Positions 8,691 through 9,671 of a stretch of 64,000 bases of DNA are shown here, one piece after another (positions within the stretch are counted from its first letter, which is position 1; the number at the start of each line of letters is the position of its first letter). Both the position numbers and the translations under genes were made by a program. The notes below the pieces were generated by a model. It saw nothing but the letters and a program-made list of their open reading frames with translations, had not been told where the DNA came from and searched no databases. The DNA is from Escherichia coli (lineage in GTDB: Bacteria > Pseudomonadota > Gammaproteobacteria > Enterobacterales > Enterobacteriaceae): the NCBI RefSeq assembly GCF_044324785.1, contig NZ_CP172127.1; one strand, 5' to 3'.

Positions 8691-8725
8691 AGTCAAAAGC
8701 CTCCGGTCGGAGGCTTTTGACTTTC
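8691..8725. terminator. Bidirectional rho-independent terminator between convergent yciA and tonB
   Basis: Hairpin AAAAGCCTCCG-gt-CGGAGGCTTTT with A/T runs on both sides. Confidence 0.75.
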
Positions 8726-8728
8726 TGC

Positions 8729-9448
8729 TTACTGAATTTCGGTGGTGCCGTTAATTTTAAACAGGATATTCACCACAATCCCACTGCCTGGCTTACCCGG
8801 CTCATAACGCCATCTGCGCATCGCATTTTTCACCTCACGCTCAAACATGTTCGCAGGCTTGGCTGAGAGGATTTGCACGTTATCCACGCGACCATCCGGC
8901 GTGACATCAAATTTAACTTTAACCTGCCCTTCAATGCGCAATGCCTGTGCTCGTGCCGGATACTGCGGCTGATTGCGGCTTAATGCGCGTGGTCCTGAAG
9001 CCACACTTGTAACCGGCTTGCTGGTTGCAGCCGTCGCCGTACTTGATGTCGGGCGCGCGGGTGCCGTATTTTCAAACGGTGATGCCGGACGCGACTCTAC
9101 GGGTTTGACATCGCGTTTTGGCTGCTCCTGTACCTTTTTCACCGGCTTCGGTTTTGGCTTAGGTTTCGGCTTCGGCTTTTCAATGACCACCGGTGCTTCT
9201 TTTGGCGGTTCGGGGATCGGCTCAGGTTCCGGTTCTGGCTCTACCACCGGCTCCGGTGGCGGCTGAACGGCTTGTGGCGGTTCGAGATCCGCAGGCGCAA
9301 CCATCGTGACAGAAATTGGCTGCGCAGGCGCAGGTAGTTCAATAACCTGATGTACCGAGGTATAGAGCAGACCCGCCACAACAGCACCATGAATGCAGAC
9401 CGAAAGTAACGTCGGCCAGGGGAAGCGGCGAGGTAAATCAAGGGTCAT
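8729..9448 (-). CDS. tonB: TonB energy-transducing protein
   Basis: Track ORF extends to 9499; start placed at [17 protein letters not shown] (ATG at 9446..9448 on minus strand) to give the 239-aa TonB with its (EP)n/(KP)n proline-rich spacer. Confidence 0.95.
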
Positions 9449-9493
9449 TGAAGTCATAATCATTTCAGTAGAAAAACCAGGCCTTGATTTTAA

Positions 9494-9515
9494 ATGCAAA
9501 TAGCAATCATATTCA
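9494..9515. promoter_or_regulatory. Fur box in the tonB promoter
   Basis: Sense-strand sequence TTGAATATGATTGCTATTTGCA matches the tonB Fur operator as I recall it, about 50 bp upstream of the tonB start. Confidence 0.55.
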
Positions 9516-9671
9516 ATAAGGCAAGACGATCAGGATCAGTGAAAATGTCATTTTTGGCGTTATTGACCTTACTTTTTAAATGGTCTTAACAAAGACATCA
9601 TCTTTCCGTTGCAGATCTTCGCCCTTTCAAATAACGTACTTTACAACTTTCCCGAACAAGGAGTTGTGCCC

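Follow-up and report, generated by a model that had tools for sequence, protein, structure and literature searches.

Dipeptide repeat number in the proline-rich spacer of Escherichia coli TonB: a census of largely stable tracts and their rare in-frame variants

Introduction

The Glu-Pro and Lys-Pro stretches of TonB have been described as two fairly static rods with a polyproline-II conformation (PMC10771500), and polyproline-II rods in this protein are also described in PMC9022066 and PMC10907165. The extended left-handed helix itself is credited, in PMC12204202, PMC10771500 and PMC9022066, to Evans 1986, Brewer 1990 and Kohler 2010. The rigid link directly follows the D-box that binds ExbD, residues 43-54 (PMC10907165), and its length suffices for the C-terminal domain to extend as far as the outer-membrane transporters (PMC9022066). 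When domain II is deleted, function is said to be diminished through a shorter reach across the periplasm (PMC10666116), and the proline-rich motif has been reported as non-essential for the transduction of energy (Larsen et al., as cited in PMC9022066). The arrangement of two oppositely charged segments is limited to Enterobacterales, Pasteurellales and Bordetella pertussis (PMC12204202). Molecular dynamics, as cited in PMC10771500, suggested that the two tracts can fold into a hairpin instead of making up one straight rod.

Several described systems offer a comparison for variation in such repeats. In the laboratory deletion of the proline-rich motif, residues 66-100 were removed, according to PMC5413942. 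In the scheme used for multilocus sequence typing in Klebsiella pneumoniae, tonB is the locus that bears indels, found in 28 of 176 alleles (PMC3299796). This parallels the length polymorphism of the E. coli gene, but it concerns another species, and a placement of those indels in the X-Pro repeats would be our own reading, PMC3299796 giving no positions. Contingency loci, or phase-variable simple-sequence repeats, resemble the TonB tracts in being short tandem coding repeats that gain or lose copies, slippage being the most likely cause.

This study examined tonB in a 64,000-nucleotide stretch of E. coli DNA (contig NZ_CP172127.1; hereafter the window), where a first-pass annotation had described the spacer-coding DNA as slippage-prone and variable between strains. 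The repeat number was compared with that of other E. coli tonB alleles, as that annotation had proposed, and was found to differ in about 2.3% of records for the Lys-Pro tract and in 2 of 5,423 for the Glu-Pro tract.

Identification of the tonB gene

The minus-strand open reading frame at positions 8729..9448 is an uninterrupted series of 239 codons followed by a stop codon. Its product scored 539.5 bits against the NCBIfam equivalog NF008083 (cut-off 448), with coverage of residues 1-239 of 239, and Pfam profiles placed TonB_N ('TonB polyproline region') at residues 33-157 (E = 1.3e-37) and TonB_C at residues 160-230 (E = 5.8e-20). In its DNA the gene shares 99.7% identity with the tonB annotated in E. 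coli N3 and 98.2% with that of K-12. The flanking genes in the window are yciB, yciA, yciI and kch, in the order that RefSeq annotates around E. coli tonB. The yciI-tonB-yciA neighbourhood is conserved in the RefSeq loci fetched, and in the 13 fetched RefSeq genomes tonB is annotated at the same place. Judged by its translation, its family profiles and its likeness to annotated copies, the gene is tonB, coding for the E. coli iron-uptake protein TonB.

The expected architecture of the protein can be read from the translation. The membrane anchor contains the SHLS motif (Ser16, His20, Leu27 and Ser31, in ...LLS16VCIH20GAVVAGL27LYTS31), which has been described for the N-terminal anchor of TonB (PMC12204202; His20 in PMC10666116), and it is followed by the proline-rich domain II and the C-terminal TonB_C domain. 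The full-length TonB chain 9ddo_F of the PDB matches the window protein over residues 1-239, and chains of the C-terminal domain match residues 103-239 and 150-239. The window protein shares with K-12 TonB its length of 239 residues, the positions of the Glu-Pro and Lys-Pro tracts and the yciI-tonB-yciA neighbourhood, and differs from it at two residues, T51A and L133P. The former is the one substitution relative to K-12 inside the D-box, the ExbD-binding strand (residues 43-54, 9287..9322, minus strand). Alanine stands at position 51 in the window and in most of the alleles fetched, and threonine in K-12, so that the peptide of the published D-box structures carries the K-12 variant.

Some other features of the region were recorded. 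Between the convergent yciA and tonB genes lies a GC-rich hairpin with a 14-bp stem (AGTCAAAAGCCTCCGGTCGGAGGCTTTTGACT, 8691..8722), which is bordered by a run of T on the plus strand and one of A on the opposite side and looks like a putative terminator common to both genes. A bidirectional terminator was described at this site in the 1980s. The sole sigma-70-like promoter match of the region (TTGAAT, 18 nt, TAAAAT; 9487..9516, minus strand) is located about 40 nt upstream of the tonB start, and a count of one such match is at chance level in shuffled sequences. An AT-rich sequence overlapping it, ATGATTGCTATTTGCATT, resembles a Fur-binding site.

Among the genomes compared, 13 tonB matches lie on records called plasmids. 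In strain KE48, for example, kch-yciI-tonB-yciA-yciB is found on a 385-kb record labelled 'plasmid unnamed1' (NZ_CP141085.1, 113843-116931). Such records may represent pieces of the chromosome under a wrong label, or else secondary replicons of very large size. In the laboratory strain XL1-Blue (NZ_CP132550.1) the best tonB match covers bases 1-664 only (92%) and the record has two places of match, which suggests that the gene is interrupted near its 3' end.

Structure of the proline-rich tracts

The acidic X-Pro tract comprises residues 70-81 (9206..9241, minus strand; GAG CCA GAA CCG GAA CCT GAG CCG ATC CCC GAA CCG), and the basic tract, (KP)6, residues 91-102 (9143..9178, minus strand; AAG CCG AAG CCG AAA CCT AAG CCA AAA CCG AAG CCG). 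They are joined by the non-repetitive connector PKEAPVVIE at residues 82-90 (9179..9205, minus strand). Both peptide strings quoted in the first-pass annotation agree exactly with the translation of residues 70-81 and 91-102 and fall inside the 9100..9300 interval assigned to them. The acidic (Glu-Pro)4-Ile-Pro-Glu-Pro and the basic (Lys-Pro)6, with the conserved connector between them, make up the spacer, domain II, of TonB. According to published work, their extended polyproline-II segments link the inner-membrane anchor and the D-box to the C-terminal domain that binds outer-membrane transporters.

The X-Pro dipeptide runs exceed chance: when the protein was shuffled 100,000 times with its composition preserved, six identical X-Pro dipeptides in a row were never obtained (0/100,000) and a run of at least four was obtained 10 times. 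The protein also contains a Pro-Pro-Pro triplet in the motif QPPPEP (residues 63-65, 9254..9262, minus strand), just upstream of the Glu-Pro tract. Triplets of this kind stall ribosomes and depend on elongation factor P, and alternating X-Pro repeats are weaker stall sites.

The tracts had been described as consecutive GAACCx and AAACCx units; these are indeed repeats coding for dipeptides, but not unbroken runs of GAA or AAA, as GAA accounts for three of the five Glu codons and AAA for two of the six Lys codons, and the true pattern is an imperfect GAR-CCN and AAR-CCN. Tandem Repeats Finder reported the Lys-Pro tract alone (period 6, 6.0 copies, 76% matches, score 44), and the Glu-Pro tract was not detected by this program even at a minimum score of 30. 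With synonymous codons interspersed, no more than about two units remain perfect in the period-6 stretches. The longest perfect hexamer repeat of the Lys-Pro tract is AAGCCGAAGCCGAA, 14 nt (9165..9178, minus strand), and that of the Glu-Pro tract is GAACCGGAACC, 11 nt (9225..9235, minus strand).

Repeat number in complete genomes

The census sample consisted of 5,426 complete E. coli genomes, in 5,422 of which tonB was found. Allele counts are approximate, being derived from BLAST identity bands combined with the top-ranked rows and the fetched loci. With an 89-nt query that covered the Lys-Pro tract, 5,302 records matched at 95% identity or more and 120 at 90-95%, the band expected for a 6-nt indel; seven records aligned over less than 80% of the query, and an allele class was assigned to all but one. 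For the synthetic (KP)10 query and the long-flank (KP)2 query, BLAST joined pieces across the gap and ranked (KP)6 records nearly equally, and only exact one-piece matches to these two queries were used.

The six-unit form (KP)6 was present in about 5,295 records, or approximately 97.7% of the complete genomes. The most frequent variant was (KP)7, with one extra AAGCCG, in about 118 records (2.2%), of which the (KP)7 query recovered 112 at 99% identity or more. The remaining classes were rare: (KP)8, with a 12-nt duplication of AAGCCA AAACCG, in three records; (KP)5, with one AAGCCG lost, in two records by exact match; and (KP)2, in which units 3-6 are lost between CCGAAGCCG direct repeats, in at least three. 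A Lys-Pro number other than six, that is two, five, seven or eight units, was found in about 127 of 5,422 records (2.3%).

The Glu-Pro tract was nearly fixed. Its length was unchanged in 5,421 of 5,423 records and one unit longer in the other two, and no shortened Glu-Pro tract was found in these 5,423 E. coli records. The two gains are independent events, since different hexamers were duplicated, GAACCG in KE48 and CCTGAG in GF3-3.

These counts qualify the description of the tracts as slippage-prone and strain-variable. Whole-unit changes at direct repeats do occur, and on several haplotypes, but the variability is weak, at about 2.3% for Lys-Pro and 0.04% for Glu-Pro. The term slippage-prone overstates the rate: (KP)6 is retained in about 97.7% of the genomes, and the Glu-Pro tract is unaltered in 99.96%.

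Mechanism of length change

In the alleles for which DNA was available, all length changes are in-frame multiples of 6 nt and take place at local perfect direct repeats. At the 14-nt repeat AAGCCGAAGCCGAA one AAGCCG has been gained in (KP)7 and one lost in (KP)5, and the 11-nt repeat of the Glu-Pro tract is the site of the GAACCG duplication in KE48. The variable tract is the one with the longer perfect repeat, the 14 nt of Lys-Pro against the 11 nt of the near-fixed Glu-Pro tract. Synonymous codons interleave in the 6-nt repeats and leave short perfect direct repeats, at which replication slippage, or deletion between short direct repeats, would occasionally add or remove whole dipeptides with the frame always kept.

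The 14 alleles compared over their full length show that the same repeat number is found on different backgrounds. The (KP)7 form is carried by three SNP haplotypes, one of them window-like (TUM1223) and two others with different backgrounds lacking Gln107 (S87 and E2348/69). The (KP)8 form is present on two haplotypes, K-12-like and another, and (KP)2 is also present on two. In the (KP)7 allele of S87 a haplotype-specific AAACCA directly follows the duplicated AAGCCG, and GCT is found 21 nt upstream of the tract; the corresponding sequences in TUM1223 are AAACCT and GCA.

Two observations touch on these haplotypes. One SNP haplotype with Ile114 has three Lys-Pro lengths of two, five and eight units (7_33_46A, CAU16175 and RMDEC332), which suggests a common lineage or unusually frequent changes. 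The loss of Gln107 is a common 3-nt polymorphism located outside the dipeptide tracts, just downstream of the Lys-Pro tract (loss of ACA, GTA CAG GAG to GTG GAG; 9128..9131, minus strand); it is not repeat-mediated and explains the 717-nt tonB genes. The haplotype with this loss in the fetched alleles is matched by about 1,200 records, among them ST131-type strains and E2348/69.

The length variants would be explained most simply by recurrent replication slippage, or by deletion between short direct repeats. The alternative that the variants were spread by homologous recombination, through allele transfer or intragenic crossover, rather than arising by independent slippage is unlikely. E. coli recombines, the full-length comparison took in only 14 alleles, and the occurrence of (KP)2, (KP)5 and (KP)8 on one SNP haplotype could reflect a single variable lineage rather than recurrence throughout the species. 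However, import of the S87 (KP)7 tract by recombination would call for crossovers no more than about 20 nt away on either side, because a haplotype-specific SNP adjoins the duplicated hexamer and the flanks of S87 and TUM1223 differ, and the two Glu-Pro gains, duplicating different hexamers, had independent origins. It is more improbable still, to the point of being hardly credible, that the variants are sequencing or assembly artefacts of a repetitive GC-rich tract. Repeats are error-prone in assembly, and many of the larger deletions are singletons in draft assemblies; yet every variant is a clean in-frame change by a multiple of 6 nt that affects defined units, the 36-nt tract fits well inside single reads, and (KP)7 is present in about 118 complete genomes, including four independent E2348/69 or O127:H6 records. 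The (KP)2 protein, the (KP)5 protein and a 218-residue deletion allele recur on 180, 60 and 37 contigs, respectively.

Taken as a whole, the explanation by a TonB domain II spacer coded by imperfect 6-nt repeats, with occasional slippage of whole dipeptides or deletion at direct repeats, is very probably correct. Classification as a phase-variable contingency locus was rejected, since all 13 fetched alleles and all protein variants are in frame and the changes are multiples of 3 nt. The TonB tracts differ from contingency loci in that the repeats are imperfect and the 6-nt unit keeps the frame, so that no on/off switching takes place, and in the rarity of the variants, which means that the rate is low or purifying selection strong, or both.

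Spacer variants in protein collections

Exact look-up of nine alleles in a collection of 15 billion proteins gives no frequencies for the common alleles; it matched only (KP)2, on 180 contigs, and (KP)5, on 60. Even K-12 TonB was reported absent by this look-up, and the cluster representative begins with MIMTSM. Differing calls of the start codon are one possible reason for such misses. Proteins from draft genomes add a (KP)4 form, found in Shigella boydii, S. flexneri and E. coli.

A homologue search also returned rare E. coli and Shigella TonB proteins of 199-229 residues (protein records P0019-P0063) that have lost 12-40 residues of the spacer in frame, among which the 218-residue allele was found on 37 contigs. 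The 203-residue P0057, present on seven contigs, lacks residues 67-101, and its protein record points to an 8-nt direct repeat, AGCCGGTG, flanking the deletion. Enumeration of microhomology for deletions known from protein only is approximate, and reliance was placed on alleles with DNA and on unambiguous junctions. P0057 is a natural likeness of the laboratory TonB without the proline-rich motif made by Larsen, Wood and Postle (as cited in PMC9022066, PMC10666116 and PMC5413942). The window allele differs from that construct in being the full-length common form, and the natural deletion alleles are known from protein records alone.

Most of the listed full-length homologues from Enterobacteriaceae keep the order of acidic tract, connector and basic tract, and in most of them the connector motif, ending in E or H, is near-invariant. 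The repeat numbers on either side of the connector drift by one or two units among these homologues.

Antisense open reading frame

On the plus strand, a frame of 97 codons with a TTG start (8973..9266) runs opposite the tracts. Its product is rich in Gly, Ser and Phe (G 27%, S 12%, T 10%, F 10%), with Phe besides Gly where the frame faces the Lys-Pro tract, and Ser where it faces the Glu-Pro tract. The first-pass annotation had called this Gly/Phe-rich frame spurious, and the comparison bears this out. No Pfam or NCBIfam match was obtained for its translation, PGAP left it unannotated in 13 of the 13 fetched RefSeq genomes, no Shine-Dalgarno-like sequence lies upstream of it, and in 11 of the 14 alleles, including K-12, TTA stands in place of the TTG start.

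The one point in favour of a real Gly-rich small protein is that the frame stays open across 14 of 14 alleles. However, an open antisense frame is expected here, because Pro, Glu and Lys codons cannot give stops on the opposite strand, and the length of the frame follows the repeat number of tonB, as befits a mirror of these codons. With the family match, the annotation and the ribosome-binding sequence lacking and the start mostly lost, the chance that it encodes a protein is close to nil. The candidate was rejected as a gene and can be safely dismissed; it is a shadow ORF.

Discussion

The published picture of TonB as an anchor and a receptor-binding domain held apart by rigid rods implies that a change in repeat number would change the span of the rod. 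A polyproline-II helix rises about 0.31 nm per residue. By this arithmetic one dipeptide would correspond to about 0.6 nm of extended length, and the range from (KP)2 to (KP)8 to about -2.5 to +1.2 nm relative to the common form. A change of a single dipeptide may have no measurable effect. The dominance of six units would reflect purifying selection on the length of the spacer or on its charge balance.

A different basis for this selection is conceivable, in which the oppositely charged tracts pair as a hairpin that masks the ExbD-binding motif until tension is applied, and the matching of six units against six, rather than reach, is what is selected. Both tracts of the window have exactly six X-Pro units, the state that dominates in E. 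coli, and the restricted taxonomic distribution of the two charged segments (PMC12204202) fits such a pairing. The two tracts of related species nevertheless differ in number, as where four or five Glu-Pro units stand beside five or six of Lys-Pro, natural (KP)2 and (KP)8 alleles persist in multiple genomes, and published domain swaps and deletions stay active (PMC10666116, PMC9022066), which leaves the matched hairpin doubtful, albeit the least improbable of the alternatives considered. There is a smaller chance, slight in our estimation, that the Lys-Pro number is a naturally tuned trait rather than neutral slippage noise, with alleles of two to eight units and spacer-poor alleles kept in some lineages. 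If that were true, the reach or charge of TonB would be adjusted to the geometry of the envelope, or to sensitivity to TonB-dependent phages and colicins.

The finding of a TonB proline-rich spacer at this locus is correct, ordinary and already known. Descriptions of the X-Pro repeats of TonB go back to the 1980s, and what the census adds to them is quantitative and modest. Its use is as a calibration, showing that apparent simple-sequence DNA is largely stable through interleaved synonymous codons, that six Lys-Pro units dominate the species, and that variation concentrates at the surviving perfect hexamer repeat. The natural short, long and spacer-poor alleles are material for tests of spacer length against force transduction by TonB.
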